Below, in pieces: positions 7,482-23,378 of a stretch of 64,000 bases of DNA (positions within the stretch are counted from its first letter, which is position 1; each line of letters starts with the position of its first letter). The position numbers were made by a program, and so were the translations under genes. Source of the DNA: an uncultured bacterium (lineage in GTDB: Bacteria; Actinomycetota; Acidimicrobiia; Spongiisociales; UBA5794); assembly GCA_963801165.1 (NCBI GenBank), contig CAWDDT010000004.1, forward strand, positions 160,001 through 224,000. The letters are read 5' to 3'. The notes below the pieces were generated by a model. That model did not search any database. It was not told where the DNA came from and saw only the letters and a list, made by a program, of their open reading frames with translations.

Positions 7482-8569
7482 TGCACGATCTCCCTGCTGA
7501 TCTGATCGACCGTCGCCATTCCCAGGTAGCGGTCACCGTCGAAAACGGCGGCAACCGCGGTGTGCGAGCTGACGACGGTATCGAGTGCCTCCTTCAGGCT
7601 CGACTGAGGCCCGATCCGGTCCCGGTAGCGGCGCACCGGAACTTCAGACAGGTCGGGGCGGCCGGCGATGTCCTTGTCCTGGAACCAGCCCTCGACCCTG
7701 TCCCCATCCCCGATCATCGCCCAGTCGATCCCGTAGCGCTTCATCATCGCCATCGCCTCGTCGGCCGTGGCGGAGCGGGGTAGCACCGGCCCATGGTCGA
7801 GCTCGATAGCCGAAATCGGTATCAGCGAGAGACGCTTGATCCCGCGATCGGTGCCGAGGAAGTCGGCAACGAACTCGTTGGCGGGCTCACGCAGGATCTC
7901 GCCGGGCGTGTCGTACTGCTCGACGTGGCCTCCATCGCTGAGAATCACGACCCGGTCGCCCAGCTTGATCGCCTCGTCGATGTCATGGGTGACGAGCACG
8001 ATCGTCTTGTGGACACGGTCCTGGAGCCGCAGCATCTCGTCCTGGAGGTTGGCCCGGACGATCGGATCGACGGCACCGAACGGCTCATCCATGAGCAGCA
8101 CGGGGGGATCGGCAGCGAGTGCCCTGGCGACACCCACCCGCTGGCGTTGCCCACCGGAGAGCTCTCCCGGGTAGCGGTCCAGCATGTCGGCTCTCAGCTC
8201 CACCAGATCGACGAGCTCATCGACCCGGGCAGTGGTGCGCGTCTTGTCCCAGCCGAGCAGAGTCGGAACGGTGGCGATGTTGGCCCGGATGGTCTTGTGA
8301 GGGAACAGCCCGATCTGCTGGATCACGTAGCCAATGCTGCGGCGCAGCTCGAAAGCGGGGAGGCTCAGTACATCTTGACCCGCCACGGTGATGCGCCCGG
8401 CGGTTGGCTCGATGAGCCTGTTGATCATCTTGAGCGTCGTGGTCTTGCCGCAACCGGATGGGCCGACGAGGACGACGACCTCGCCCTCGGCGATGTCGAG
8501 AGATAGCCCGAAAACGGCGGGGGCGGCGGTTCCCGGGAAAGTCTTGGTGACATCGGTGAGCGTGATCAT
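7478..8569 (-). CDS. Osmoprotectant ABC ATP-binding protein with CBS domains
   Basis: GPSGCGKTT, LSGGQRQR, LLMDEPF; start at MITLTDV. Confidence 0.93.
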   Translation of the reverse strand: MITLTDVTKTFPGTAAPAVFGLSLDIAEGEVVVLVGPSGCGKTTTLKMINRLIEPTAGRITVAGQDVLSLPAFELRRSIGYVIQQIGLFPHKTIRANIATVPTLLGWDKTRTTARVDELVDLVELRADMLDRYPGELSGGQRQRVGVARALAADPPVLLMDEPFGAVDPIVRANLQDEMLRLQDRVHKTIVLVTHDIDEAIKLGDRVVILSDGGHVEQYDTPGEILREPANEFVADFLGTDRGIKRLSLIPISAIELDHGPVLPRSATADEAMAMMKRYGIDWAMIGDGDRVEGWFQDKDIAGRPDLSEVPVRRYRDRIGPQSSLKEALDTVVSSHTAVAAVFDGDRYLGMATVDQISREIVQ

Positions 8570-8632
8570 CGCGCAGAACCATAGTGGTCGGAGCGCCGCG
8601 CACCGGGGGCCATACCGCGCTAACTTCACGAT

Positions 8633-9961
8633 GTGAGTTCGCAATCACCACCGACCGAGCAGAAGCGGGGCCGTGTCGGGCAGGTCGCTGCTGCGCTGGC
8701 GCACAGTGTCGGCCAGATGTTCAGCTCGCGCGGTCCCGGGTTCCGCCGTCTCGCCCAGTCTCACGCCGGTGGCACCGCAGGAGACACGCTGGTGGCGATG
8801 GCGCTCGGCACCACCCTGTTCTTCTCGGTGCCGTCCACGGAGGCCCGGTCCAATGTCGCCCTCTACCTGCTGATCACGCTCGCCCCATTTGCCTTGATCG
8901 GCCCGTTTCTGGGGGCGTTCTTCACCCGTTTCCCAGGTGCGTATAGAGGCGGGCTCGTTGCCGCCTCGGCGTTGCGCGCCGTGGCCGCGGTGGCGCTGGC
9001 AATGTCCCTCGATACGGTCCTGCTCTTTCCGCTGGCGTTTCTGTCACTGGTGCTGTCACGGTTTCACGGGATCAGCCGTTCGAGCGTCGTTCCGATTGTT
9101 CTCGATGACCCCGACGAGCTGGTATCTGGTAACGCACAGCTCGCCAAGATCGGTGTGGTGGGCAGCGCCTTCATCGTGCCGTTTGGTCTGCTCGGAGTCG
9201 GATTCGGACACCCGTCTGTTACGTTGATCATCGCCTCGATCGTGTACGTGTGGTCGGCCCTTTCGGCGAAGGGGCTGCCGCCGCTTCGGATCGAGCGGGA
9301 CCGGAGCCGGGAGGCAAGGGCGTTGCGCAAGCGGTCTGCCGCCCCGCGCGAGGTGAGGCTGGCCCGGTTTGCGACGGCAGGTGTGCGTTTCCTCAACGGG
9401 TTCCTGCTTCTTCTCGTGGCGTTTGCTTTCCGTGATCAGGACGCCGGGGTCGCCGACTTCTCCGCTCTGCTCGCGGCTGCCGGCCTCGGTTATCTGATCG
9501 CCGCCTTCGCCACCCCGATTCTCGATCGGAGGATGTCGGAGGAGCCGATGGTGGTCACCGGCCTGGCGATCGAGGCTGGGGCGGCGTTCGTTGCCGCCGA
9601 GGTCTTCGGGCTGCCGGCCGCCGCGTCACTGGCCGCCGCCGCGGGCTTTGCCTGGGGCACTGCCAAGTTCGGGTTCGACGGATTGCTCCAGGCCACCGTC
9701 CCCGAGGAGGGGAGAGGCCGGGCGTTCACCAACGCTGAAACTTTCTTCCAAATCTCCTGGGTCGTCGGAGCCTTGATCCCGGTTGTGCCGGTGATCCCGG
9801 TGACGGCCGGGCTGACAATCGCCGGCATCTCCGCTCTTGTCATCCAGGTCGTCTATGTGAGCGCCGTGCTGGTGCCGGTGGTGCGTCACCGAAGAGCAGC
9901 GGCCGTAGCCACGAGTCGGGAGAACACAGGGCCCGACAAGAACGTCATGGACCTGATCTAG
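8633..9961 (+). CDS. MFS-like membrane transporter (actinobacterial type)
   Basis: About 12 hydrophobic segments; LFFSVPSTEARSNVALYLLITLAPFA motif typical of actinobacterial MFS proteins. Confidence 0.8.
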   Translation: MSSQSPPTEQKRGRVGQVAAALAHSVGQMFSSRGPGFRRLAQSHAGGTAGDTLVAMALGTTLFFSVPSTEARSNVALYLLITLAPFALIGPFLGAFFTRFPGAYRGGLVAASALRAVAAVALAMSLDTVLLFPLAFLSLVLSRFHGISRSSVVPIVLDDPDELVSGNAQLAKIGVVGSAFIVPFGLLGVGFGHPSVTLIIASIVYVWSALSAKGLPPLRIERDRSREARALRKRSAAPREVRLARFATAGVRFLNGFLLLLVAFAFRDQDAGVADFSALLAAAGLGYLIAAFATPILDRRMSEEPMVVTGLAIEAGAAFVAAEVFGLPAAASLAAAAGFAWGTAKFGFDGLLQATVPEEGRGRAFTNAETFFQISWVVGALIPVVPVIPVTAGLTIAGISALVIQVVYVSAVLVPVVRHRRAAAVATSRENTGPDKNVMDLI

Positions 9962-9970
9962 CACAGCGTG

Positions 9971-11290
9971 CTAGGCGACGAACCCCGCAAACCGGTGCAG
10001 CTCGGTTCTCGGCACCTGTGCGGTGATCCTGGTCCCGTCGTCGGTGTGCTCGGTGGCCGCCACCCGGCCGATCTGGTGAACCAGGGCGACCACGTCACCG
10101 CGGTCGTAGGGGATCACCAACTCGACGTCGTCGGTTGTGTTCTCGAGCCTCGTGGCGACGGTGGCGAGGAGATTGTCGATCCCTGCTCCCGTTGCTGCCG
10201 ACGTAGCCACAGCCTCGGGATGAAGCGCCAGGAGCCTTTTCACCGCAACGGGATCGGCGATGTCCGTCTTGTTGACGACGAGGACCTCAGGGATGTCTCC
10301 CGCGTCGATCTCCCGGAGCACGCTGTGGACGGCGGTGATCTGGCGGTCGGGATCAGGGTCGGCGGCGTCGATGATGTGTAGGAGCAGGTCGGCCTGATTC
10401 ACTTCCTCGAGGGTGGAGCGAAACGCCTCGATGAGTTGGTGCGGCAGGTTACGGACGAACCCGACGGTGTCCGACACCAACAGCGGTGAGCCGCCGGGAA
10501 GCTCGATGCGGCGCACGGTGGAGTCGAGCGTGGCGAACAGCCGATCCTCGACGAGCACACCCGCGTCGGTGAGCCGGTTGAACATCGTCGACTTGCCTGC
10601 GTTCGTGTAGCCCACCAGCGAGGCGACCGGGAGGCGCGACTTCCGCCGGGCTTTGGTGCGGGTATCCCGAGATCGAGCCAGATGCTTCAGCTCACGCTCG
10701 AGCTTGGCGATGCGGTCGAGGATGCGCCTCCTGTCGGTCTCCAACTGTGTCTCACCAGGCCCACGGGTCCCGATACCGCCGCCGAGACGGCTCATCTCGA
10801 CGCCACGCCCGCGCAGACGCGGCAACCGGTATTGCAGCTGGGCCAGCTCCACCTGAAGCATGCCCTCTCTGCTCGTGGCGTGCTGAGCGAAGATATCGAG
10901 GATCAGGGCGACCCGATCGACGACGTCGCATTGGAACATCCCTTGCAGGTTGCGTTGCTGTGCCGGCGACAGCTCGTTGTCGAAGATGACGACGTCGATG
11001 TCCTGCGCCCTGGTGAGAGCCACCAGCTCCTGGATCTTGCCTTTCCCGATCAGCGTCGCCGCGTCGAGGCGGTCGCGGCGAACCAGCTCCTGGTCAACCG
11101 GGTTCGACCCTGCGGTATCGGTCAGGAGCGCCAGCTCATCCAAGCTCGCTTCCGTGCCGGGAATCGCGCCCTTGCTCTGCGCAACCGCGATGAGGAACGC
11201 GCGCTGCTTGACGACCTCGAGGTCGGTGACACTTGCGGTGAGGCGGGAGCGGCTTCTTCCCGGGCGGGATTGTTCTGCCATCGAGGTCAT
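9971..11290 (-). CDS. hflX: GTPase HflX
   Basis: GGGIGTRGPGETQLE, GYTNAGKS, LFATLD, DTVGF, NKTD. Confidence 0.96.
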   Translation of the reverse strand: MTSMAEQSRPGRSRSRLTASVTDLEVVKQRAFLIAVAQSKGAIPGTEASLDELALLTDTAGSNPVDQELVRRDRLDAATLIGKGKIQELVALTRAQDIDVVIFDNELSPAQQRNLQGMFQCDVVDRVALILDIFAQHATSREGMLQVELAQLQYRLPRLRGRGVEMSRLGGGIGTRGPGETQLETDRRRILDRIAKLERELKHLARSRDTRTKARRKSRLPVASLVGYTNAGKSTMFNRLTDAGVLVEDRLFATLDSTVRRIELPGGSPLLVSDTVGFVRNLPHQLIEAFRSTLEEVNQADLLLHIIDAADPDPDRQITAVHSVLREIDAGDIPEVLVVNKTDIADPVAVKRLLALHPEAVATSAATGAGIDNLLATVATRLENTTDDVELVIPYDRGDVVALVHQIGRVAATEHTDDGTRITAQVPRTELHRFAGFVA

Positions 11291-11368
11291 GAAAGCAGAT
11301 CCTGCAGAGACCTGTGGACTTCGTTCACGGGTAGTTGGTATCTTTGAGGCACGCTGATAGGGAGGATC

Positions 11369-11800
11369 ATGCAGAAGACCGTCGGGCAGTTGCTCGAAGC
11401 AAAGGGAGCCGAGGTATGGACGATCGGCCCGGATGCCACCGTCCTCGAGGCTCTCAACTTGCTCGCAGAGAAGAATGTCGGTGCGGTCGTCGTCGTCGCA
11501 GACGGTAAGGTGAGCGGGATACTTTCGGAGCGTGACTACGCCCGCAAGGTCAGGCTCCTGCATCGTGATTCCGGGGATACGGCCGTCTCCGAGATCATGA
11601 CCTCAGAGGTGAGAACGATCACCCGCGACAAGGATGTCGTGGACTGCATGGAGATGATGACCGAGTTTCATATCCGCCATCTTCCCGTAGTCGAGGGCGA
11701 CACCCTGGTCGGGCTCATCTCGGTGGGCGACGTGGTCAAAGCGGTGATCGCCGAGCAGGCGTTCCTGATCGATCAGCTGCACCAGTACATCACCGGGTAG
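11369..11800 (+). CDS. CBS domain protein
   Basis: GILSERDYARK, IRHLPVV, ISVGDVVK; GGAGG RBS. Confidence 0.92.
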   Translation: MQKTVGQLLEAKGAEVWTIGPDATVLEALNLLAEKNVGAVVVVADGKVSGILSERDYARKVRLLHRDSGDTAVSEIMTSEVRTITRDKDVVDCMEMMTEFHIRHLPVVEGDTLVGLISVGDVVKAVIAEQAFLIDQLHQYITG

Positions 11801-11847
11801 CTACATCACCGGTAGCTACATCACCGGGTAGCTACATCACCGGTAAC
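11786..11847. repeat. Tandem repeat 4x TACATCACCG(G)GTAGC
   Basis: Alternating 16/15-bp units; the first contains the CBS gene stop codon. Confidence 0.9.
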
Positions 11848-11852
11848 GCGGT

Positions 11853-12176
11853 TCAGGCTCCGCGATCGGCCATGATCGAAGCGTCGTACGGCTCGATCAT
11901 GATGCACTCACCGGGGCACTCCTCTGCCGCCTCGACCACCGTGTCGACGTCGTTGTCGGGAACCCGGGCGACGCCGCGTGAGCCGTCGGGACCGTGGTCA
12001 TCGCCTTCGCCGGCGTCGAAGTAGATGGTCTTGCCAAAGTTGGACGCCTCTTCCTTCACTGTCCACAGGCCATCGTCGCGGCCCCGGAACACGTCGGGTG
12101 CGATCTCCTCGCAGATGCCGTCGCCGGTGCAGAGATCCTGGTCGATCCACACCATCAGTTTGGTTTCATCAGCCAT
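11853..12176 (-). CDS. Ferredoxin (single cluster, CxxDxxC...CP)
   Basis: WIDQDLCTGDGICEEIAP ... AAEECPGECI. Confidence 0.92.
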   Translation of the reverse strand: MADETKLMVWIDQDLCTGDGICEEIAPDVFRGRDDGLWTVKEEASNFGKTIYFDAGEGDDHGPDGSRGVARVPDNDVDTVVEAAEECPGECIMIEPYDASIMADRGA

Positions 12177-12271
12177 CGCTCACCTTGTCGCCTGGGAATC
12201 GCGGCTCAGATTAGTCGCCGGGTGCCGGACTGCCGGCGGACCCCAGGTGGGCCGGCGGTAACCTCACCCTC

Positions 12272-12366
12272 GGAGGTGTCAGGATGCCTGGTGGGTCCCG
12301 CGGTCTTCAAAACCGTTGAGGGGGCGAAAGTCCCCTGGCGGGTTCGATTCCCGTCCGCCTCCGCCA
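12272..12366 (+). tRNA. selC: tRNA-Sec (anticodon UCA)
   Basis: 95 nt; anticodon loop CTTCAAA, long variable arm, T loop TTCGATT, acceptor GGAGGTG/CGCCTCC, ends GCCA as in bacterial tRNA-Sec. Confidence 0.92.
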
Positions 12367-12373
12367 GAGCCCG

Positions 12374-13594
12374 TCAAATAAGGGTATTCCGGGTGCTGCC
12401 GTCGAGTTCGACGACGGCCCCGGAGCCCTTCGGGGCGCGCTCGGGGCGCGATAGGGGCGCGGGAGAATCACTCGAGCCTCGTTGGGGGCGTGTCTGGGGC
12501 GGTGTGGTGGCGGCGATGTAGCGGCGGTCGAGCGCGTCGGAGAGGGCGTCGAGGTCGTCTGTCGTAGAGGTGTCCGTATAGGTCGAGTGTCATTGCTGCT
12601 GAGGCATGGCCGAGCTGGCGTTGTACTGCTTTGATGTTGGCTCCGGTGGAGATCATCAGCGAGGCTGCGGTGCCTCGCAGGTCGTGGATGCGGAGTTGCT
12701 CGAGGTCTGCTGCTTCGATGGCTGGTTTCCAGACGGTTTGGCGGAACGGGGAGGAGCGGAGCGGCCCTCCTTTTGGTGCGGTGAAGACGAGCCCGTCGTC
12801 GGTGATGGTGCCGAGGTGGGCGGCGAGACGGTCGGCGAGGAACGCGGGCATGGTGACGAGACGCCGTTCGTGGGTTTTGGGTGTTCCCCATGACAGACCG
12901 GAGCCGAGTTCGGTTGCGGATTCGGCGATCTCGATGCGACGCCGCAGCAGGTGGACACGAGGTCGTCTCAGCGCGACGAGTTCGCCCCATCGCATCCCGA
13001 CCCACGCCAGGGTCTCGATGATGAGCCCGGTTCCGGTTTGAGCGTTCTCGGCGGCTGCGGCGAGGACTGTGACTTGTTCGGCGGTGAGGAACCGCTGCTC
13101 GCGTCGCCGCACCGTCGGGACCTTCACCCCGGACGTCGGGTCGCGGGCCAGGATCCCGTCGTTGACGGCCAGCTGGAGCGGGCTGATAGGACTTGTTTGG
13201 CTTGTTTGATCCGTGACGCGGAGAGCCCCTCGGTGGTCATGTCGGCGATCCATTCCCGCACCATGGCCGGCGAGATGCGGTTGACTGGCAGATCCCCGAA
13301 TGCGGGTAGTACGCGTGAGCGGAGCAGCGATTCGTATCCGGCGCGGGTTTTGGGTTTGATGTCGAGTCCGGCGAGCCAGGCGGCGGCGGCTTCGGCGAGT
13401 GGGATGTCTCCGGCTTCGGGGGCGATCCAGTCGCCACGGTCGATTGACCCGAGTCTGGCAACCAGCCAGCGGTCGGCGTCGACTTTCCGGTCGAAGCTCC
13501 TTGAGCGGATGCGTCCGTCGGGGCCTCGATATCGGGCTCGCCACCTTTTCCCGGTGCGTCCTTGCCGGTCTTCGATCCATCCGGAGCGTCTCAT
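12374..13594 (-). pseudogene. Tyrosine integrase, frameshifted at about 13180 and 12560
   Basis: N-terminal RWRARYRGPDG arm-binding region in one frame; GMRWGEL, TPKT, HDLRG, LGH, LYGH catalytic motifs in a second; DDLDALSDALD...NTLI tail in a third. Confidence 0.88.
12432..12461. repeat. Putative integrase arm-type sites, left end
   Basis: GGGGCGCG x3 at 11-bp spacing; same octamer x2 at 22994-23012. Confidence 0.6.
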
Positions 13595-13917
13595 GCGGTT
13601 CTCCCTCCCTACGTCTCGATGCGGCATCTACTCGTATCCATACACGGAATCCGGTGTGGCGGGCTGTCAACCCCATTGCCGGCCACAACTCTGAGACGGC
13701 AGAAGGCGAGTTCACATCTCTCATCATTGCTCATCATCTCTCATTAGTTATCAATATTTATACGCTATCAATGTTGTATAAGGGTTATGATAGTCGAAGG
13801 AACGGACACCCGCACCGGGAATCTGATCATGACTCCAGCTACCAACCTGCAGCGACCCCACAGAGTCTTTGAGGACAGACGGGTGCACACCTGCGGTGAC
13901 AGGGTGGGGGTGGCACG

Positions 13918-16675
13918 GTGACGGTGCGGGTGACGACGTTGAAAGGCACCGAGGCTGGTCGCTATTACACCGAGCAGCTCCCGTCGTACTACCTCGACAG
14001 CGGTGAGCCGCCGGGTCGCTGGTTCGGACACGGCGCCGCCGAGCTGGGTCTTGATGGTGTGGTCGACGATGAGGCGTTCTTGGCGGTGATGGCCGGATTG
14101 CATCCGACGACAGGGGAGCGGCTGGGTCGCCGCTTCGGCGACGGTTCGGTGCGGGGGTTCGATGCGACGTTTTCGGCGCCGAAGTCGGTGTCGGTTCTGT
14201 TCGCCGTAGGCGACGAACAATTGCGCCGCGCAGGTGACCGAGGCGCATGACCGGGCGGTCGACGCGGTGCTCGACTGGGTCGAGTCGCAGGCGCATACGA
14301 GGTTGCGGTGGCGGGGTCATGTGGTGTGTGTCGATGCCGAAGGGATCGTGGTCGGGGTGTTTCGTCAGCACACGAGCCGCCGACTCGACCCGCAGTTGCA
14401 TACCCATGCGGTGATCGCCAACCGAGTCAGGGCTCCGGACGGGCGTTGGTTGGCGCTCGATGCCCGCACGTTGAAGATGGATCAGCGGACCTTGTCGGGG
14501 TTGTATCACGCCGGGTTGCGGGCCGAGCTGACCCGCCGCCTCGGAGTCCAATGGCACCAACCCGAAAATGGGATTGCCGAGATGGTCGGTGTCGACCCGG
14601 AGGTGCTGGCCGAGTTCTCCCAACGCAGCCGCGACATCGAGCAGCGGGTCGGTGAGAAGCTGGACCGGTTCCGCACCGACCTCGGGCGGGAACCGACACC
14701 ACGGGAACGGTGGCGTCTGGAACGCGAGGCCGTGTTGGACAGCCGCCCCGCCAAGACCACGGTCACGCTGCCGGCGAGTTGCATGCCGGGTGGCGCAGCA
14801 GGTTGCGAGCCGGCTCGGTTTCGAACCACGACGACATCGCCGTCGGCACGGTGGGTCGGGTCCGCCGGGCGACCGGCATCGACCAGGCGACAATGGCCGG
14901 AATGATCGATGGGGCGTTGGAGGCGTTGGGGGAGCGGCAGTCGACATGGCGTCCCGCCGAACTGGTCCGTGAGCTCGCCGCCCAGGTCCCCACCAATGTC
15001 ACCGTCGAACCGGATCGTCTGTGCGGTTTCCTGCAGGACCTCGCCAACCACGTCGCGGCAGACCGCTGTGTCGACCTGTCCCCACCAGTCCCGTCTGGTG
15101 CCGTGTTGCGCCGTGACGGGCGCCCGATCAGCGAAGCCGCCGTCGACCGGGCCCTCACCACCCAGGCGATCCTCGAGGAGGAGGAACGGATCGTGGAATG
15201 GGCTGAGCGGCAGCGCCGTTTCGCCGACATCATCGACACCACACCCCGGGGCCTCGACACGCAGGGTTTGAGTGCGGGTCAGGCCGAAGCGTGTCGGGCA
15301 GCAGCCGGTGGCGCACCGTTGGAGCTGATCGTCGGACCCGCCGGATCGGGCAAGACCACCGCCCTCACACCCGCCGTCGCCTACCTACAAGACCGCGGCC
15401 AGACGGTGTTCGGGGTGGCACCCACCGCAGCAGCCGCCGAGGTGCTCGCCACCGAAACCACCATGGCGGCCGACACGCTCGACAAGCTCCTCTACGAACA
15501 CTCCCGGCCCGACCGGCCACCACAACCGGCATACGACTGCCGCGGGGGTCGACGGTGATCGTCGATGAAGCCGGCACCGTGTCCACCCCGAAACTCGCCG
15601 CCCTCACCCGTCTCGCCGACGACAAGGCGTGGCGGGTGGTGATGGTGGGTGATCCCCGCCAGTTCTCCGCCGTCGGTCGGGGCGGCATGTTCGCCCACCT
15701 CATCGACACCTACGGCGCCATCGAACTCGACCACATCCACCGCTTCACCCACCAATGGGAAGCCGACGCCACCCGGCGTCTCCGCCAAGGCGACATCGGC
15801 GTGCTCGGCGAGTATCAGCGTCACGGTCGCCTCCACGACGGCACCCCCGACGCGATGGAGACAGCGATCGTCGAGGCCTGGAGTCAGGCGCGGCGGCGGG
15901 GCGAGTCGGTGGCGTTGATGGCCAACACCAACCACACCGTCAACCGTCTCAACCAGCTCGCGCAACAAAGACGCATCGGCACCGGTGAGCTCGACCCGAA
16001 CGGGCCCGGCCTCGACGCTCGGCCGGCGAGCGGCTGCTCGTCGGCGACGAGGTGGTTACCCGCCGCAACCAGCGCACCCTGCGCACCGACCACGGTGTCA
16101 TGGTGAAGAACCGGGACCACTGGACCATCGAAGCCATCCACCCCGACGGCGCCGTCACCGTCACCGGACGGGCGGGCAGGGTGCGTCTCCCCGCCGACTA
16201 CGCCGCCGAGGATCTCGAACTCGGCTATGCCCAGACCAGCCACGCCACCCAAGGCCGCACCGTCGACACCGGTCTCCTCCTCGTCGACGGCCCCATCGAC
16301 GGCCGCGGCCTCTACACGCCGCTGACCCGCGGCCGAAGCTCCAACCACGCCTACGTCGTCACCAGCGAAAACGAAACGGCAGCCGACGTCCTCACCCAAG
16401 CGATCGCCCGGGACTGGATCGACCAACCCGCCATCACCCAACGAACACGCCTCGAAGCCGGCAAGGCGTTGAACCCCACGCTCGGACACAGCCAGCTCGG
16501 AGACGATCAGCAAGAAGCAACGCACCCACCCGATCACGACGTCGGCAAGCCAGATCTCAGCTCCGACGACCACCAAACCTGGCAGACAAATCAACCGGAG
16601 CATCGAAGCCGCCAAGCAACGCCAGCGCCGCTGAGCGCAGCCCGCAGCCGACACACCCCCGGCATCGGCCGCTGA
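13918..16675 (+). pseudogene. MobF (TrwC-like) relaxase-helicase, four apparent frameshifts
   Basis: RYY..SYY catalytic tyrosines, FDATFSAPKSVS, HTSR.LDPQLHTH, GPAGSGKT, VIVDEAG, VGDPRQ and GYAQTSHATQG spread over five overlapping ORFs. Confidence 0.9.
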
Positions 16676-16814
16676 CCACAACCACGGCCACGGAACGTGA
16701 CGAACCAATAACTGGTCTAGATCACCGGCATATTGCCGGATCGAGGGCGGTTGTGGGTGCTCGATAACGCGGCGTGGCTGGTGTCGTTATGGGCGGGTGG
16801 TAGCCATCCATGCC

Positions 16815-16828
16815 TACTAGTGGTAGTA
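16815..16828. promoter_or_regulatory. Putative antitoxin operator
   Basis: TACTA-GTGG-TAGTA palindrome 7 bp before the antitoxin ATG. Confidence 0.4.
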
Positions 16829-16835
16829 TTCCGGT

Positions 16836-17060
16836 ATGAAGCTCAGTGTCAGTCTTCCGGACGAGGATGTTCAGTTCCTCGATCAGTACGCTCAAACCCA
16901 AGGATACGAGTCCCGGTCCGCTGTGGTGCACAAGGCCGTCCGGCTACTTCGTGCATCCGAACTGGGAGGCGACTACGCCGACGCTTGGCAGGAATGGTCA
17001 GATTCGGGTAATGCCGAGGTCTGGGACGCTGCTATAGGCGACGCGTTGGTTGGCAACTAA
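16836..17060 (+). CDS. mazE: RHH antitoxin (mycobacterial MazE9-like)
   Basis: MKLSVSL..DV..LD.Y....SRSA....A.R.LR...DYA.AWQEW; overlaps the toxin start. Confidence 0.88.
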   Translation: MKLSVSLPDEDVQFLDQYAQTQGYESRSAVVHKAVRLLRASELGGDYADAWQEWSDSGNAEVWDAAIGDALVGN

Positions 17061-17407
17061 TGCTGCGCGGTGAAATCCGGATGGTTGATCTCGATCCGGC
17101 ACGACAGGGTGAAGCAAACAAACGACGCCCGGCGGTTCTTGTTTCCAATGACGGTGCCAATACCACCGCCGCCAGGCTGGGACGCGGTGTGGTGACTGTG
17201 GTTCCGGTTAGTTCCAACGTCACCCGGGTTTATCCCTTTCAGGTGCTGCTTGCTGGAAACGAAACGGGTCTCGATCGTGACTCGAAAGCCCAGGCTGAAC
17301 AGGTCCGGTCCGTTTCTGTCGATAGGGTTTCCCACAAGGTCGGTACGGTGCCGCCGGACATCATGCTTGCAGTCGATGACGCTTTGCGTCTCCACCTCGC
17401 GCTCTGA
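17060..17407 (+). CDS. mazF: MazF/PemK endoribonuclease toxin (MazF9-like)
   Basis: RGEIRMVDLDPARQGEANKRRPAVLVSND, YPFQV, SKAQAEQVRSV. Confidence 0.93.
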   Translation: MLRGEIRMVDLDPARQGEANKRRPAVLVSNDGANTTAARLGRGVVTVVPVSSNVTRVYPFQVLLAGNETGLDRDSKAQAEQVRSVSVDRVSHKVGTVPPDIMLAVDDALRLHLAL

Positions 17408-17489
17408 CGATCGGTGCTACCTGACTTGACGCCTACGACTACGCGTTGGCTGCCGAGAGTCAACGCCACTGGATGCCATCTCAGATCAC

Positions 17490-17572
17490 CAAATCCCGGA
17501 CGATGAGACGCACATCACCGAACCACGCATACCGGCGCCTCTCTCCGCTCGGCATGGCGGCCACGCAGGGTT
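17490..17572 (+). repeat. Cargo boundary repeat, copy 1 (divergent)
   Basis: CAAAT...ATCACCGA...ACCGGCGC...CAC-N5-GTT aligns with the other copies. Confidence 0.5.
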
Positions 17573-17613
17573 GTACCAAGCGGTCGGCGGGTGTCTTCCA
17601 TCACCTCAAACTT

Positions 17614-17624
17614 TCGTATTACGA
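17614..17624. promoter_or_regulatory. Putative TA operator
   Basis: TCGTA-T-TACGA palindrome just before the toxin start. Confidence 0.4.
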
Positions 17625-17633
17625 TATTGAGAT

Positions 17634-17897
17634 GTGGAAATCTACCGCACAGCCCACAAACACGGCATCAGCGACGCCGATATCCGGCACGCCGTCGACA
17701 ACGCCATCACCGTTGTTGACCTCGAACCCGACGTGGACCCTCCCAAGGTCCTGGCCATCGGACCGGACCGTGCCGGGAACCTGTTGGAGGTCATCTGGCT
17801 CGAACTCGCCAATGACGCTCAGCTGGCGATTCACGCCATGCCGCTTCGACCCACTTTCTACGACTTGCTCCCGTTCCCCGGGGAGGACATACCATGA
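17634..17897 (+). CDS. Putative RelE/BrnT-fold toxin (actinobacterial AxKHG type)
   Basis: TAHKHGIS..DI.HA, IGPDRAGNLLEV, IHAM.LR; upstream of and overlapping an RHH gene. Confidence 0.75.
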   Translation: MEIYRTAHKHGISDADIRHAVDNAITVVDLEPDVDPPKVLAIGPDRAGNLLEVIWLELANDAQLAIHAMPLRPTFYDLLPFPGEDIP

Positions 17898-18175
17898 GTG
17901 ACAACAAGACACGCCGCACCGCCACTGGCCGCAGCCTCACCGAAGAGGAACTGGACCACATCGCCGCCGAAGTCGAAGAGACCGCATACGATGTTGGGGT
18001 ACTCAAGACTCGTCGCCGCGGCCGCCCCCCGATGGGGTCGGGACCGGCAGATGTGGTCCCTGTTCGCATCGACCCGGAACTGAAGGCAGCGATCGAGGCT
18101 CGAGCCCAAGCAGACCACACATCCACCAGCGAGATCATCCGCGAAGCAATCCGCCGTTTCCTCGACGTGGCCTGA
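17894..18175 (+). CDS. CopG/RHH antitoxin
   Basis: RRGRPPMG, VRIDPEL...SEIIREAIRRFL; GGAGG RBS. Confidence 0.8.
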   Translation: MSDNKTRRTATGRSLTEEELDHIAAEVEETAYDVGVLKTRRRGRPPMGSGPADVVPVRIDPELKAAIEARAQADHTSTSEIIREAIRRFLDVA

Positions 18176-18195
18176 CCTAGACCAGAGCAGACCAA

Positions 18196-18287
18196 CAATT
18201 CTGTCGCAAGAACGATCACTTCCCCGAGTGCGCCCGATCGGCACTTCCAAGATCGGGGCCGGGACAGGGAGGCTGCCACGCAGCGTG
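18196..18287 (+). repeat. Cargo boundary repeat, copy 2
   Basis: CAATTCTGTCGCAAGAACGATCACTTCCCCGA...ATCGGCAC; the CAC-N5-GTG box lies 11 bp further out than in other copies. Confidence 0.75.
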
Positions 18288-18451
18288 GTGCCCGCTTGAC
18301 CCGATCTTCCGTTCCATTGCTACTCAACCCCAGGCAATGGCGCCACGTCATACCGATCACGCAACGCAACCGTTGGATGACATAACTGGCCATGACGCGG
18401 CACCGGATTGGTCAGCTCCGCTAGCGTCCAGCGAACGCAGAAAGGTTGCGG

Positions 18452-19273
18452 ATGAAGTGTCCAAGCGGGGATTCCGAGGAGCCTCGTGACGATGAGGAGC
18501 TGGCGCGTGTCCTGCTGGGCGAACATCTCTCAGGCGAGTTAGTTCGTGTCGATCCCCCTCTACCCGATTTCGTCATCTGTCGCGATGGTGTGATCGAAGG
18601 CGGCGTCGAGGTGACACGCGCAACTGACGAAGATTCAGAGCGACTCAGGGGGCTACTTCGCAAAGACGGTCCCTCGTTTGAGTCCGATCGCTTGGAACAG
18701 AACTGGATCGTGATGTTCAACAAGGGCGCTGACCTGCGCAAACTCAACCGGGATCGTCTCGTCGATGCCCTCGTGCTGATGGAGCTCGACGCGACCGAGC
18801 GAGCACTTGCCGCAACGAACCGCCAGATCCAGCAGCGACACGCTCTTGAAGCTATCCGTCACGAAACGCAAATCAAGGGCGTGCTTGGCACTCTTGGCGT
18901 CGACCACGCCATACCGTGGAACCACAACAAGCCCGCCGGAACGGTGCACCTATCTGAGGGCGGGTGGACGTGGGCGTGGGAGCATCCAAACCTGATCAAT
19001 GACCTCGCGGAGGAAGTGATAGAGCGGAAGAAAGAAAAAGGCCTCCGGAGCATCAGTGGAGAAAGCCACCTGTTTGTGTGGGTAGACCCTTGGGAGCCGA
19101 CCGGCGCTGGCATTTTAATGAGCGGACAAGCCGAGCTTCCGGAAGAACCACCGAAGATCCCGGATTGGGTCACCGATGTTTGGATGGTAAGCACGTTCGG
19201 CCCTGCCCGCCTGTGGCACTGCTCAAGAGGTGGATCGTGGCATCTCCGAACCTCCGGGCAACCCGACCCCTAG
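18452..19273 (+). CDS. Hypothetical protein, possible PD-(D/E)xK-like nuclease
   Basis: Long ORF with PDFVI...GVEVT near the N terminus. Confidence 0.6.
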   Translation: MKCPSGDSEEPRDDEELARVLLGEHLSGELVRVDPPLPDFVICRDGVIEGGVEVTRATDEDSERLRGLLRKDGPSFESDRLEQNWIVMFNKGADLRKLNRDRLVDALVLMELDATERALAATNRQIQQRHALEAIRHETQIKGVLGTLGVDHAIPWNHNKPAGTVHLSEGGWTWAWEHPNLINDLAEEVIERKKEKGLRSISGESHLFVWVDPWEPTGAGILMSGQAELPEEPPKIPDWVTDVWMVSTFGPARLWHCSRGGSWHLRTSGQPDP

Positions 19274-19312
19274 AAACCCCCACATCCCGTGAACACTCCC
19301 GTCCTAGAACAC

Positions 19313-19394
19313 CAAATCGGGCGTGATAACCATCACATTGCCCACCCACTCGATATCGGCACCTCCACGGGCGGGCTCCGGAACACTCGTGGTG
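19313..19394 (+). repeat. Cargo boundary repeat, copy 3
   Basis: CAAAT..GATAACCATCAC..ATCGGCAC-21bp-CACTCGTGGTG. Confidence 0.7.
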
Positions 19395-19480
19395 GCAACG
19401 GCCATCCGATAAGCGCATCGATCAAGGGAGCACTACTCGCCTATCCTGAGTCGAGAGAATCCAGACGGGAGGCGACCGCC

Positions 19481-19810
19481 ATGGCGAAAAGGATCATTGT
19501 CGCTACTTGCCTAGCTTGGGCGTTTCTGGGTTTTGCGATCGCTATGGTCGCCCTCCCGGAAGTCAACGCCGATGCAAAGCTCCTTGTCGGATCGATGTCT
19601 GTGCTTCTCCCCGCTGCGGCGGTGGGGGCAGCCTGGGCCGCCAATCGTTCGAAGGTCTGGCTCACCGTCGTCCTGCTTCTCATATCGGTCGGGACGCCAA
19701 CATACATGCTGTATGTCGCCAACCTAATTCCGGTGATTCTGGCGGCTGTCCTCGCCCGGAGAGGGCGGGTTCTATTGGATTCGGTCCAGTCGAATTCGGT
19801 CACGGTCTGA
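19481..19810 (+). CDS. Small integral membrane protein (about 4 TM)
   Basis: GGGAGG RBS before the ATG; almost entirely hydrophobic. Confidence 0.7.
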   Translation: MAKRIIVATCLAWAFLGFAIAMVALPEVNADAKLLVGSMSVLLPAAAVGAAWAANRSKVWLTVVLLLISVGTPTYMLYVANLIPVILAAVLARRGRVLLDSVQSNSVTV

Positions 19811-19867
19811 GGTGTTCTAGGTCGCTCGACCCTCAGAGGTATTCGAATCGGGGCCACCTCAGGTCTT

Positions 19868-19965
19868 TGGCCGCCCCCGACCAGCATTATCCGAGCAATA
19901 ACGCAGATTTCGCCGACCGTCCCCGAACGGCACCTCCGCGAGCGGGGTGTCGACCACCGGTGGTG
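19868..19965 (+). repeat. Cargo boundary repeat, copy 4
   Basis: 54/66 identity by hand alignment to 22182-22247; ends CACCGGTGGTG. Confidence 0.85.
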
Positions 19966-19989
19966 ACGCGGTCGATTGTGGTGCTGCTG

Positions 19990-20377
19990 CTATTGCGAGG
20001 CTTGGCTGTATGAGAACTCGCCGGTGATTCGTTGTCCTTCGACTGTTCGTTCTAGGCAGGTCCCCGTCCAGCCGGCTGGGAGTTCGACCGCGGTGAGGAC
20101 GTCGCATGAGGGTCGCGTACATCCGGTGGGTGTCCTCGGCCCGTAGTCGCACATAGATGATCGCTCCTTCGGAACTCGGGATCGCATACAGCTGATCACC
20201 TACTTCAGCAGCGATCAGTGCTTCCAACTCAGGAGTCGGGATATCGGCGTCGGTGATTTCGGTGGCATTGGCCATCAGTGTGGCGGTCGTCGCCTCGGTT
20301 GGGTCGGTGCCGGTCCCGGTCGCCGTGCAACCCATCAGCGATGCGGCAAAGATGACAGACGCTTTACGAAACCACAC
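19990..20377 (-). pseudogene. Small lipoprotein, apparent frameshift near 20110
   Basis: Signal peptide with LMGC lipobox; protein-like tail SCDVLTAVELPAGWTGTCLER continues in another frame to the stop at 19990. Confidence 0.55.
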
Positions 20378-20453
20378 GGCATCACCTCTTCAGCCAACGA
20401 TACATCAGGTCTCGATTACCCCCATAACAAAAAATACTGTGCGGCGGCGCTAG

Positions 20454-20512
20454 CCACCCCCGAAGCGCTGCCGCGTCGGGATGACCTTCCCAGCACTGAC
20501 CGCCCAGGATTG
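20454..20512 (+). repeat. Internally deleted boundary repeat
   Basis: CCACCCCCGAAGCGCTG-N13-ACCTTCCC matches 20986-21023, followed closely by GACCGCCCAGGA. Confidence 0.65.
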
Positions 20513-20531
20513 CCGAAGATGCGCGTTCTCT

Positions 20532-20945
20532 ATGATCCAGTCTGTGATCGAACCATTTCCCGAGGACCATGAACTCGTCTCGTTTTTCGAGACCCTTCCG
20601 ACATACCCTGAACGATCCACTTCCGACGACTACGAGATCCCTACGGCGTACCTCAAACAGGTTTACTCATCGAGCGCAGGGTCGTCTGCGGTGACCTTTT
20701 CCGTGGAACGAGCATCGGGTCTGGTAGATCTGGACGTCACTTCAGCCGACGGAATGAGCGTGAGGGTCGTTCTCCACTGGGTAGCGGCGATCTCGATCGA
20801 GGAGCACCCGCGCCTAGGAAAGACGCTGGTAGCGAAGCCAAGCCAGCCTGAACTCCGAGATCTCCGGCTGAGGCTCGGTCCGGAGCCCTCCATCAGTTGG
20901 GGAACAGAGATGTATCCGGATCGGCCCGCTGACCCCATCGTGTAG
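20532..20945 (+). CDS. Hypothetical protein
   Basis: 137-aa globular-looking ORF (PEDHELVSFFETLP...); start uncertain. Confidence 0.6.
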   Translation: MIQSVIEPFPEDHELVSFFETLPTYPERSTSDDYEIPTAYLKQVYSSSAGSSAVTFSVERASGLVDLDVTSADGMSVRVVLHWVAAISIEEHPRLGKTLVAKPSQPELRDLRLRLGPEPSISWGTEMYPDRPADPIV

Positions 20946-21035
20946 GTGCCGCGAGGAACGGTGCCTTCGTTGTGGCGCCGCCAAACCACCCCCGAAGCGC
21001 TGTGACACTCCGAGAACCTTCCCGGGCAATATCGC

Positions 21036-21116
21036 CAATTCTGCTGCAGTAACGATCAGTTTCGCCGACCGCCCGGGATCGTCACTGATGCGGGCATGGC
21101 TCGAACACGCACCGTG
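21036..21116 (+). repeat. Cargo boundary repeat, copy 5
   Basis: CAATTCTGCTGCAGTAACGATC..TTCGCCGACCGCCCGGGATCGTCAC..CACGCACCGTG; internal dyad CAGTAACGATC/GATCGTCACTG. Confidence 0.8.
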
Positions 21117-21411
21117 ACAGGGTGCCTGCGCGTTTTCCCTGGATCGAAATCGGGTCACCCGCCTATTCCCGATCTCGTGGGCGGGTTGGGGGTCGACACG
21201 TCGGGGCGGTTGGCGGCATTCTCGAAGGCGGCGGTGTGCTCGGAGCTATGAGTAACCGAAGGGTCGGCATGTGCGGTGAAAGCCGGTGACGCCGGAAGGC
21301 TCGAAAGGACTGGGCGTGACATTCCCTCCTTGTCTTCTCCGGGTTGGCTGTCTTTTGTTCTCCATGGCCGCGCGCGTCGGGTGTTGCCGAGAGAGTGGGG
21401 CACAATAGGTT

Positions 21412-22092
21412 GTGATGGTTGTCAAGAAGGGCAATGTGAGTCTCGATTCCGACTCCTCCGACAAGGGGGAGCGTTTCGGCGGTCGCCTGTTACCCGTCTT
21501 TGTTGTCGTTCTGGCGGTGTTGGCCGCGGTGACCGTTTGGATTGCAGGTGTTGATGCCGGACCGTTCACAGCAGCAGACTCGACTCCATCGACGCCGGCT
21601 ACCCAGGTTTCCACGACTCAGGCTCCCTCGACTGGAACCTCGGTTGGTCCTTCAACATCGACAACGGTTGGCCCGGTCCGGGTGGTCACCGCACCAACAG
21701 GACCGGCTGCGGGATCAAACTCGCCGACGTGCGAGAACGCAGCCGAGCAGGCCGCGGTCGGGTTCTTCGCCGCAATGGCAAACGGGGATGCAGCCGAAGC
21801 CGAAACATTCTTCGCAACCGACGATTTCGACGGATACACAGAGGTTCCGCACAGGACAGACGACGCCGCCCGCGACCGCAACAGCCTCTTGGAGTACTTC
21901 CAGACTCGCGCAGCTACGGGCGCTGAGTTCCATCTGGTGAGTCGAACCTTCTACGGTGGGACAGATGACCGCCAGGCCAACTTCGGCGTTGACGTGCGCA
22001 ACGAGGACGGCGACAGCATCTCAGGCCAAGGCACTGTCAACTGTCAGACAGGCAAGATCATCGCCCTATTCCTCGTCCCGCTCATCGACTAG
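21412..22092 (+). CDS. Membrane-anchored exported protein with Thr/Ser linker and possible NTF2-like domain
   Basis: Single TM, Thr-rich linker, AAVGFFAAMANGD helix, two Cys; start uncertain. Confidence 0.65.
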   Translation: MMVVKKGNVSLDSDSSDKGERFGGRLLPVFVVVLAVLAAVTVWIAGVDAGPFTAADSTPSTPATQVSTTQAPSTGTSVGPSTSTTVGPVRVVTAPTGPAAGSNSPTCENAAEQAAVGFFAAMANGDAAEAETFFATDDFDGYTEVPHRTDDAARDRNSLLEYFQTRAATGAEFHLVSRTFYGGTDDRQANFGVDVRNEDGDSISGQGTVNCQTGKIIALFLVPLID

Positions 22093-22181
22093 CGGCCAAT
22101 CTCAGGCAGGTGCGCGTCGGCATCCAGCGTGGCGACCGGCAGGCATCTAGCCCGACTGACGCATGCCGTACCATCAGAAGC

Positions 22182-22279
22182 TGGCCGCCCCAGATCAGCA
22201 TTATCCGAGCAAGAACGCTCCGTTTCCCGACCGCCCGGGAACGGCACGTCGGGGTGCGGGTCAGTGGCCACTCGCAGTG
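22182..22279 (+). repeat. Cargo boundary repeat, copy 6
   Basis: CAGCATTATCCGAGCAAGAACG..CCGACCGCCCGGGAACGGCAC-21bp-CACTCGCAGTG. Confidence 0.85.
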
Positions 22280-22331
22280 TCTGCTGAATGACGGGCGAGG
22301 CGGTCGAACTCCTCAGGCATGGACGGAACTC

Positions 22332-22360
22332 TTGAGACGTATCACGATACGTGATACGGT
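22332..22360 (+). promoter_or_regulatory. TA promoter with operator palindrome
   Basis: TTGAGA-17bp-TACGGT overlapping the perfect inverted repeat CGTATCACG-ATA-CGTGATACG. Confidence 0.65.
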
Positions 22361-22366
22361 CGTTGT

Positions 22367-22606
22367 ATGGCACAAGCAATCTCAGTCCGCCTTGACGATC
22401 GGGCGCTCCGTGCGCTTGGCCAACTCGAGGCAACCGGCATGACCCGCTCCGAAGCGATCCGTGCCGCTCTCGTCGAGGCAGCGTCTCGACTCCATGACAA
22501 GGCTGCCGTCGCTGCAGAAGTCGCCGCTCTCGAAGCCGACGACGACGATCGCGCCGAGATGCTGGCAGTTGCCGATCTGATGGAGAGCCTTCGTGCAGCG
22601 GGGTGA
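22367..22606 (+). CDS. CopG/RHH antitoxin
   Basis: AISVRLDD...RSEAIRAAL; overlaps the toxin gene. Confidence 0.85.
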   Translation: MAQAISVRLDDRALRALGQLEATGMTRSEAIRAALVEAASRLHDKAAVAAEVAALEADDDDRAEMLAVADLMESLRAAG

Positions 22607-22910
22607 CATCTTCGCCCTGCGACTCCCCAAAGGGGTGGGGCACGAACAGAAGGGACGTCGCTTCGGTGTGGTCGTCCAGTCTGACGCGTTTCTGCCGCGG
22701 TCGGTGGTGCTGGTGGCACCGACATCGACCAGTGCCAAACCCGCTTCGTTCCGACCCGAAATCGAAATCGATGGAACCGCGACTCGGGTGCTTGTAGAGC
22801 AGGTTGGTGCTGTCGATGTGCAGCGCCTCGGTGATCTGGCCGGCCACCTCAGCCCGGAAGAACTATGGGGTGTCGATGCCGCTTTGCTCACCGTCCTCGG
22901 TCTCAACTGA
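22593..22910 (+). CDS. PemK/MazF family toxin
   Basis: RGDIF, GHEQKGRRFGVVVQSD, VAPTST, VLVEQ..AVD. Confidence 0.9.
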   Translation: MQRGDIFALRLPKGVGHEQKGRRFGVVVQSDAFLPRSVVLVAPTSTSAKPASFRPEIEIDGTATRVLVEQVGAVDVQRLGDLAGHLSPEELWGVDAALLTVLGLN

Positions 22911-22925
22911 GCGCACCGATCACAC

Positions 22926-22974
22926 CAATTCACGAGCAACAACGCACACTTCGCCGGGTGATCGGGATCGCGGT
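22926..22974 (+). repeat. Cargo boundary repeat, copy 7 (3'-truncated)
   Basis: CAATTCACGAGCAACAACGCACACTTCGCCGG..GGGATCG just after the toxin stop. Confidence 0.7.
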
Positions 22975-23139
22975 GAGCAGTCTTCCGCATCTCGGGGCGC
23001 GCTGGGGGCGCGGGAGAACGAAAAACGATGCAAACCACTGGGAGATGACCAAAGATGATGAGTAGTCAAAAACCATTGTGCTATAATGGTTTTCGGCAGA
23101 ATCCCCAGCGTGTCGCTGACTTCCGAGAAACGCCCCGAA

Positions 23140-23205
23140 CGGTCTTCAAAACCGTTGAGGGGGCGAAAGTCCCCTGGCGGGTTCGATTCCCGTCCGCCTC
23201 CGCCA
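23140..23205 (+). repeat. att site: duplicated 3' part of tRNA-Sec
   Basis: Identical to 12301-12366, starting in the anticodon stem. Confidence 0.95.
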
Positions 23206-23237
23206 CGAGGAGCCCCGTCGGTTGGCGGGGCTCCTCG
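23206..23237 (+). terminator. Hairpin after the tRNA fragment
   Basis: CGAGGAGCCCCG...CGGGGCTCCTCG 12-bp stem. Confidence 0.65.
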
Positions 23238-23378
23238 CCCCGTCAAATAAGGGTATTCCGGGCGCTGCCGTCGAGTTCGACGACGGCCCCGGAGCCCTTC
23301 GGGGCGCGCTCGGGGCGCGATAGGGCCGCGGAAGAATCAGTCGAGCATCGTTCGGGGCGTGTCGGCAGCGGTGTGGTA
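23238..23378 (-). pseudogene. 3' remnant of a second, related tyrosine integrase
   Basis: Highly similar to about 12370-12508; translates as ..LSRPERAPKGSGAVVELDGSARNTLI*. Confidence 0.8.

Follow-up and report, generated by a model that had tools for sequence, protein, structure and literature searches.

Repeats at the gene boundaries of a tRNA-Sec island in Acidimicrobiia as candidate crossover sites of a non-integron cassette system

What is the repeat that follows each accessory gene in a selenocysteine tRNA (tRNA-Sec) island of an uncultured actinobacterium? The island lies in a stretch of 64,000 nucleotides (the window, positions 160,001 to 224,000 of contig CAWDDT010000004.1; lineage Actinomycetota, Acidimicrobiia, Spongiisociales, UBA5794), for which a preliminary description had reported a degenerate site at every cargo-gene boundary and had proposed a gene-capture or shuffling system. 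Comparison with other genomes and with metagenome contigs revealed a widely distributed family of ~93-bp sites, cassettes that are re-assorted between genomes, a position within the site at which homology switches, and a hexamer, CGGCAC, that is shared with two other mobile elements. These sequence comparisons lead us to consider, with a probability of about 60%, that the repeats serve a non-integron cassette system as double-stranded crossover sites, used in trans by a Xer-type tyrosine recombinase.

A family of co-oriented sites in accessory arrays

The repeat is real, as a hidden Markov model (HMM) built from the seven proposed copies recovered all seven of them with nhmmer (E 1e-9 to 1e-19, computed against the whole 4.55-Mb genome). 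All are on the plus strand and co-oriented, and the layout of one site per cargo unit, placed after the unit, holds along the array. The extent first given to the copies has to be revised, since they start about 8 nt further upstream and are about 93 nt long. They are located at 17482..17574 (site 1, with the junction between cassettes after 17538), 18188..18290 (site 2, which contains an 11-nt insertion; junction after 18244), 19305..19396 (site 3; after 19362), 19878..19968 (site 4; after 19933), 21029..21118 (site 5; after 21085), 22191..22281 (site 6; after 22247) and 22922..22990 (site 7, the final array junction, which lacks the core GCAC; junction at ~22969-22971). A deleted copy announced at 20454 turned out to be a remnant of just 26 nt of the site core at 20498..20523 (plus strand), seen by repeat finding as 77% identical to 21067-21092 and not detected by nhmmer. 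In the same way, a degenerate first junction was recognised by eye at 16718..16731 on the plus strand (junction at the end of TAGATCACCGGCAT), where the HMM did not find it. No further copy was detected by nhmmer within the window, in agreement with the earlier remark that the housekeeping flanks showed none.

The consensus derived from 114 copies in 11 genomes of the genus reads CAGATCAnCAAaTctgGnGCGAtAACGcgCAnTTCGCcGAgtGncCgaGAtCGGCACnTCngcGngCGGgnngncGAACACtCACnGTGgCGG and agrees with the one drawn earlier from the window. Its best-conserved positions are A51 and C53-G-G-C-A-C58 (91-99%). The site is composed of a conserved 5' arm (CAGATCAnCAA..GCGAnAACG..TTCGCCGA), a nearly invariant core (GAtCGGCAC) and a looser 3' arm (nTCnnCG..CGG..GAACAC..GTG). 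Four direct repeats containing GAWC were also noticed by eye within the site, namely AGATCA, AGAACG, AGATCG and CGAACA, and are candidate sites for accessory factors.

At E<1e-3 the genome contains 32 copies, 25 of them outside the window, distributed over about 14 loci. Twenty-six copies belong to multi-copy clusters and each of these (26/26) is oriented like its neighbours; the clusters contain accessory genes, and single copies exist beside the arrays. A genome-wide scatter of the kind known for repetitive extragenic palindromic (REP) sequences or miniature inverted-repeat transposable elements, which the preliminary description had set against its own proposal, was therefore not seen. A sequence-only covariance model made from 23 copies detected family members in 71 of 101 genomes of this order, in 10 of its 12 families and in 14/14 genomes of the genus. 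Copies per genome reach 41 (genome G034), some counts being "at least" values, and in distant genomes the match is mostly limited to model positions 2 to about 72. Among 151 genomes sampled across the phylum, the matches were this genome, two of the same order and a weak one in the same class, and none of the 140 sampled genomes from other classes had the family. Relatives in public records are metagenome-assembled genomes (MAGs) of Acidimicrobiia and Acidimicrobiales, and one site copy used as query had no match in plasmid and phage collections. Two unpublished genomes (G039, G050) enter only the tallies and one row of the dif comparison. The system had been thought to belong to mobilizable islands; it is not a property of such islands as such, since arrays are also found between core genes and the 41 sites of G034 occur in a genome with no TrwC match.

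Cassettes with changing neighbours and the position of the switch

The preliminary description had proposed testing whether homologues of the cargo occur elsewhere in another order with breakpoints at the motif, and genome and metagenome comparisons revealed such cases, in other orders and other loci. A public MAG contig (L023) carries window positions 16732-18247 at 97% identity, that is, mazEF, a site, a pair of brnTA-like genes and a half site. There, the block is inserted between two convergent core genes that are adjacent in this genome (37 nt apart), and the core DNA flanking it is only 71-85% identical to this genome. The cassette that follows in L023 is 92% identical to one that this genome has on contig C7, with a site on either side. 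In parallel, contig C8 of genome G014 contains window positions 21080-22247, with cassette 7, at 97% identity, among other neighbours and in another locus. The two 97% blocks occupy two loci of a relative. The brnTA-like cassette was also found between two sites on contig C10 of this genome (22601-23165, 78%) and at 39 loci of other genomes. Cutting the arrays of 11 genomes of the genus from junction to junction gave 65 cassettes, 50 of which are unique; in the 7 shared clusters (15 members) the neighbours differ between genomes, and the identical gene order that would have spoken against the proposal was not observed. The cargo across arrays includes toxin-antitoxin pairs, PIN, Fic, HNH and VanZ proteins and many unknown genes. 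As a side observation, the 37-nt spacer of the empty locus (contig C4 of this genome, 642345-642382, compared with L023 4032-7669) resembles a collapsed site, CCGATCACG then CCACACTGGCCGG, and may be a scar or the primary insertion point.

Metagenome data consisted of assembled contigs from four runs, none of which holds more than 19% of the array words. Contigs from soil, salt marsh and sediment contain only single cassettes of the array each. For instance, cassette 3 was found on a salt-marsh contig of 5.5 kb, where it is bounded at 18239 and 19362. The portion of the array from 19.5 to 21.2 kb has no metagenome cover and carries no evidential weight.

Several comparisons place the switch of homology within the site. 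In both 97% pairs, identity starts or ends exactly after CAC (window 21085 and 22247) and the other half-site is unrelated; homology to locus L082 likewise switches exactly at the junction of site 5. Metagenome contigs supply independent breakpoints. One of them breaks at 18244 and continues into a different 3' half. At site 1, the 5' half in contigs from two runs is another one, with GATCGGCAC at its end, and their match to the window begins at about 17541; at site 7 contigs from four runs diverge leftward of 22957-22989. The switch after GGCAC corresponds to column 58 of 95, and 16 of the 42 ends of BLAST high-scoring segment pairs that fall inside sites are in columns 49-61. The clearest result comes from 78 near-complete sites (3003 pairs), across which the identity of 5' halves and that of 3' halves are uncorrelated (r = -0.05). 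Moreover, among the five pairs with 3' halves at least 88% identical, four have 5' halves at background level (40-65%), with the switch at the hexamer. These data support the view that the two halves of the site re-assort independently, and the comparative evidence as a whole supports reading it as a recombination site.

Candidate recombinases and competing readings

Which enzyme could act on such sites? Two mobile elements meet the family at the same hexamer. An IS110-family element (DEDD_Tnp_IS110 and Transposase_20 domains in a 342-aa transposase) splits two sites between GAxCG and GCAC, in locus L017 at 7200-8800 (contig C7 of this genome, 41.2-42.8 kb) and on contig C13 at 71.9-73.4 kb. 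The second is a 2.5-kb element encoding two tandem tyrosine recombinases of 435 and 378 aa, the second of which is frame-broken in this genome. It was located in L013 at 10466-12960 (contig C6, 646.4-649.0 kb), in L082 at 8571-11085 and in L089-L092, L097 and L098. The element has inverted repeats (GGGATATGGGGGTAATC), shows 76-97% identity between copies from three families of the order and always stands in one orientation at the site hexamer. Its left end adjoins GG(C/T)AC in 7 of the 9 loci in which that end is visible, six times in a recognisable 5' half-site and once behind an IS110 end; it likewise abuts GG(C/T)AC on the salt-marsh contig at window position 19362, and a 3' half-site stands after its right end. 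In L091, the two-recombinase element was seen directly behind the end of an IS110-family element.

Both recombinases of the 2.5-kb element align over their full length to the XerC, XerD and XerA models (105-136 bits, below the equivalog cut-offs), and their best matches in the PDB are solved XerC-like and XerD chains. The joined ends of the element, CCCCCATAT-CCTCAC-TTATGTGGG, resemble the chromosomal dif of the order, GCCCATAA-TCCNCG-TTATGT, which was found in 22 of 31 genomes and once in most of them. After insertion, the left junction holds CGGCAC and the right one CCTCAC, each parent's own hexamer. In Xer-dependent integrative elements, such kept parental hexamers are expected from the exchange of only one pair of strands, at the right-hand border of the central region. 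Finally, genome G013 contains at least 12 perfect palindromic sites, CATAA-CGGCAC-TTATGT, co-oriented within each contig and 0.3-4 kb apart, on four small contigs (L125-L128, that is, C217, C147, C164 and C357). A pattern search of the 31 genomes found these sites in G013 only, and they may form a second, pdif-like (plasmid dif) module system with the same central hexamer. Because CGGCAC is used in these three ways, by the element with the Xer-like pair, by the IS110-family element and in palindromic sites, a Xer-type tyrosine recombinase is favoured, which would act on the arrays in trans.

In the mechanism that we propose, a cassette would be one gene or one toxin-antitoxin pair and exchange would fall directly 3' of CGGCAC, so that the upstream gene would keep the 5' arm and core and the downstream gene the 3' arm. 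An excised cassette would bear one complete site, and co-oriented arrays would grow by successive insertion at existing sites, settling in the cargo region of integrase/TrwC islands as well as in ordinary chromosomal intergenic loci. The catalyst could be the host XerC/D or the mobile Xer-like pair, again in trans, with a single strand pair presumably exchanged at the right edge of the central hexamer and the 5' arm possibly serving as accessory sequence. A broader proposal, put forward tentatively and at rather less than even odds, is that of an order-wide, integron-independent system of Acidimicrobiia in which Xer-type enzymes would excise and insert single-gene cassettes at ~93-bp sites with a one-sided accessory arm and a CGGCAC hexamer, the cassettes circulating between species; Actinomycetota would thereby gain their first described cassette platform.

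The system functions like an integron or a set of pdif modules, yet it fails the defining tests of both. Xer-dependent modules include the pdif modules of Acinetobacter plasmids and integrative mobile elements exploiting Xer (IMEX) such as CTX-phi and TLC. With these it shares small modules, often toxin-antitoxin pairs, bounded by sites for trans-acting tyrosine recombinases, the insertion at the same hexamer of a mobile element with a dif-like attP and two Xer-like recombinases, and parental central regions kept on each side, as in an exchange of one strand pair. On the contrary, the site is ~93 bp long instead of 28 bp and lacks the TTATGT XerD arm of the order's dif; it is co-oriented in arrays whereas pdif sites alternate, and the arrays are not at dif. 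The plasmid resolution sites cer and psi, which resolve multimers, associate a core crossover with ~50 bp of conserved sequence on one side, and by analogy the one-sided conserved arm of the present sites could bind accessory proteins and impose direction. The sites differ in having no known accessory protein or plasmid context, and cer and psi do not bound cassettes. No description of such arrays in Acidimicrobiia was found in the portions of the literature returned by a full-text search. Our findings suggest that one actinobacterial order has its own way to package and exchange single accessory genes. The site provides a sequence handle with which the flexible gene pool of hundreds of soil, marsh and sediment MAGs can be found, cassette boundaries set to the exact base and the recombinase sought. 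If Xer-type enzymes do act on it, site-bounded modules, hitherto described mostly on Acinetobacter plasmids, would also have a place in the chromosomes of a distant phylum.

A number of observations weigh against the Xer-type crossover reading. No recombinase, the island integrase included, is linked to the arrays, and those of G034 mostly have no tyrosine recombinase within 10 kb (by eye). The best match of the whole genome to the integron-integrase model TIGR02249 reaches 66.6 bits against a cut-off of 265. As for resident enzymes, the two-recombinase element was weakened as a candidate by the presence of a Xer-like pair in only 10 of 101 genomes, and TrwC by G034, with its 41 sites and 0 TrwC matches. 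The right arm of the site is devoid of a XerD-like motif and the left arm is XerC-arm-like in only one of three sequence classes (by eye). Concerning breakpoints, 26 of the 42 segment-pair ends fall elsewhere in the site, in columns 3-44 and 69-85, including columns 8, 13, 25-40 and 69 and window positions 17498 and 18214. In one pair of 98% identity the match stops at column 8 of the following site. The 97% block of L023 contains a stretch of 11 mismatches after AACG at 18214, and its left end (16732) is in sequence only loosely site-like. The breakpoint counts and positions are soft because BLAST ends run on through conserved blocks and were counted from both partners; in addition, kin are non-independent. 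The metagenome contigs listed no circle or deletion joints, an outcome that is neutral since contigs drop rare variants.

The alternative that survives best, and that we regard as unlikely, is that of a conserved intergenic repeat with another role, for example host-protein binding or a function like that of REP sequences and bacterial interspersed mosaic elements (BIMEs). Cassettes would then be re-assorted by homologous or microhomology recombination, and insertion sequences would use the repeat as a safe repeated target. That breakpoints occur at several places, where conserved blocks end, is in keeping with it, as are the lack of a recombinase tied to the arrays and the single copies beside them. 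REP-like repeats are also known targets of IS110-family elements, and the family shares with REP/BIME sequences its intergenic position and its tens of copies. However, the longest invariant block is 6-8 nt and each half averages 51-53% identity, an amount too small for RecA-dependent exchange, and independent pairs switch repeatedly at one and the same phosphodiester. Furthermore, the copies are clustered in accessory arrays, they form no hairpin, and no PF01797 match, the mark of a Y1 transposase or REP-associated tyrosine transposase (RAYT), was found in the genome (98% complete). PeSL cassettes of T4-type phages, in which a promoter and a stem-loop accompany homologous exchange, offer a related comparison: in both cases small variable genes stand between short conserved intergenic elements, at which shuffling breakpoints fall, and the present sites differ by the absence of promoter and stem-loop and by a sharp breakpoint.

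It is improbable that the repeats are nic-like sites, comparable to an origin of transfer (oriT), at which the TrwC-type island relaxase cleaves and rejoins DNA and captures cassettes by strand transfer. Co-oriented sites lie downstream of the relaxase gene in 6 of the 9 TrwC loci of this genome, the same arrangement is present in genomes G005, G067 and G059, and conservation is mainly 5' of the junction, all of which would suit such a process. The sites differ from the oriT of MOBF (TrwC) relaxases in that they occur where there is no relaxase, in G034 as well as in arrays between core genes; in addition, no conserved hairpin precedes the junction and the relaxase of the window is a pseudogene.

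A still less probable explanation is that every cargo gene brings along a structured or regulatory RNA, for example a terminator, a processing site or a small RNA. The sites are intergenic and of constant length, and folding of segments gave three local stems, with a small CAC..GTG stem possible near the 3' end. Nevertheless, the secondary structure hinted at earlier was not supported: the internal dyad described in the copy at 21036 is present there and is not conserved across the family, and minimum free energies were no better than those of shuffled sequences (z-scores -2.0 to +0.9, both strands, 13 copies). Alifold on the HMM alignment returned a 3-bp stem only. A hand-drawn structure of 18 pairs had 57.0% of cells paired, against 57.1% in shuffles, and hairpin claims were dropped because this fixed structure has no covariation. 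Rfam gave no match on the sites at gathering scores or at E up to 5, tRNA-Sec being the sole match in the window. Gene orientation, relied on solely where Pfam-supported as the in-house gene calls are rough, is independent of site orientation. For instance, in the array of contig C5 a VapB/PIN pair, a second PIN gene and an HNH gene are oriented opposite to the sites, as is a VanZ gene in the array of contig C4 at 413k. Because genes occur in both orientations and no promoter-like or terminator-like consensus was found on any site, the site more likely acts at the DNA level than through RNA or transcription. Array orientation showed no simple pattern with respect to replication direction in one complete genome (G059, by eye).

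Integron arrays, and clusters of attC sites lacking an integrase (CALIN), resemble the present ones by one site per gene, co-orientation, a diverse cargo and a site length that is kept while the sequence varies, and attC sites are also targeted by an IS110/IS1111-type element. The preliminary judgement that the sites are neither attC nor dif can be retained, as there is no IntI, no attC-like fold or R boxes and no TTATGT arm. Integron crossover takes place between G and TT in the R' box at the 3' end, whereas here the switch is mid-site and each array site is therefore a hybrid of two cassettes; many array loci are present per genome, with no attI or integrase adjoining. That the sites could be attC sites of an integron-type array with its integrase elsewhere is hardly credible in spite of the layout, the very diverse cassette pool and a cargo rich in toxin-antitoxin pairs and small unknown genes, given the integrase score, the shuffle-level folding energy and pairing, the lack (by eye) of a GTTRRRY box at the 3' end, the mid-site crossover, the genes in either orientation and, in the IntegronFinder 2.0 paper, the report of Actinobacteria without complete integrons (PMC9024848).

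The tRNA-Sec island and its cargo

The island described at the outset is confirmed by a tRNA-Sec gene, a second tRNA-Sec-like gene, a direct repeat, a tyrosine integrase and a frame-broken TrwC relaxase. The tRNA-Sec gene at its left end is at 12272..12366 (plus strand; ARAGORN and Rfam RF01852, 72.7 bits) and a second, tRNA-Sec-like gene at its right end is at 23095..23198 (plus strand; Rfam, 51.2 bits). The direct repeat matches 12301-12508 to 23140-23377, which covers the 3' part of the second gene and the sequence downstream. The integrase of 419 aa is encoded at 12468..13727 on the minus strand (Pfam Phage_integrase, 1.7e-19), followed at 13918..16675 on the plus strand by the TrwC-type relaxase-helicase pseudogene, which is spread over several frames (Pfam TrwC, 3.3e-46, and AAA_30 in separate open reading frames, ORFs). 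Two other arrays of this genome (contig C5, 611785-611982; contig C13, 162627-162818) have at their far end a segment 89-91% identical to this second tRNA-Sec-like gene together with the ~130 nt preceding it (window 22963-23198), and islands of this family seem to carry such a segment at their right end.

Eight cassettes compose the array, all on the plus strand except the fifth, and its G+C content is 58-63%, compared with 65-69% in the flanks. Cassette 1 (16836..17407) and cassette 8 (22367..22910) each encode a ribbon-helix-helix (RHH) antitoxin, with a PemK/MazF toxin in the former and a PemK toxin in the latter, as had been annotated. The pair first called RelE-like, cassette 2 (17634..18175), corresponds to a DUF4258/BrnT-like toxin and an RHH antitoxin with weak Pfam matches, and the protein of 275 aa first called nuclease-like, cassette 3 (18446..19273), has no significant family. 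Pfam likewise assigned no family to the 109-aa protein of cassette 4 (19481..19810), to the 172-aa and 154-aa products of cassettes 5 (19859..20377, minus strand) and 6 (20481..20945), both from the ORF list, and to the 226-aa protein of cassette 7 (21412..22092), which brings to five the array proteins with no Pfam family. The minus-strand ORF of cassette 5 extends ~90 nt into site 4 (window 19859-19970); either its true end differs or the site supplies its C-terminus.

Other sequence features recur around the arrays. An element of the form TGCCGG..GCTCGATAACG..(18-20 nt)..GTTATGGGCGG, with an inverted repeat, was observed 3' of several relaxase stop codons, at window 16732-16800 and after the TrwC genes of this genome at C5 596672, C13 169119 and C9 440233. 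It also stands at the head of the mazEF block in L023 and may be the oriT of the islands or the entry point of the array. In parallel, a Mutator-family (IS256-like) transposase gene of 449 aa occurs in this genome as four seemingly identical copies, all a few kb from site arrays (C5 599448-600797, C6 650746-652095, C10 23916-25265 and C10 290002-291351), their likeness being judged from equal coding scores of a rough gene caller and the Pfam scan covering the C5 copy. In more distant Acidimicrobiia (L033, L040, L048 and L054, downstream of the antitoxin; L026, L031), the same brnTA-like cassette is followed by other conserved repeats, one of them a long GC-rich imperfect palindrome with GGTTTGCTAATGGCAGC..GGCAAGTAGCG and another bearing TCCACAG repeats and GGCTCCCA, which may be lineage-specific counterparts of the sites. 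Finally, a palindromic motif, (T)TCGTATTACGATA(T/A)T, lies directly 5' of the brnT-like gene (window 17600-17633) and in the same place at 27 loci, in all of those listed, and probably serves the pair as operator and promoter.

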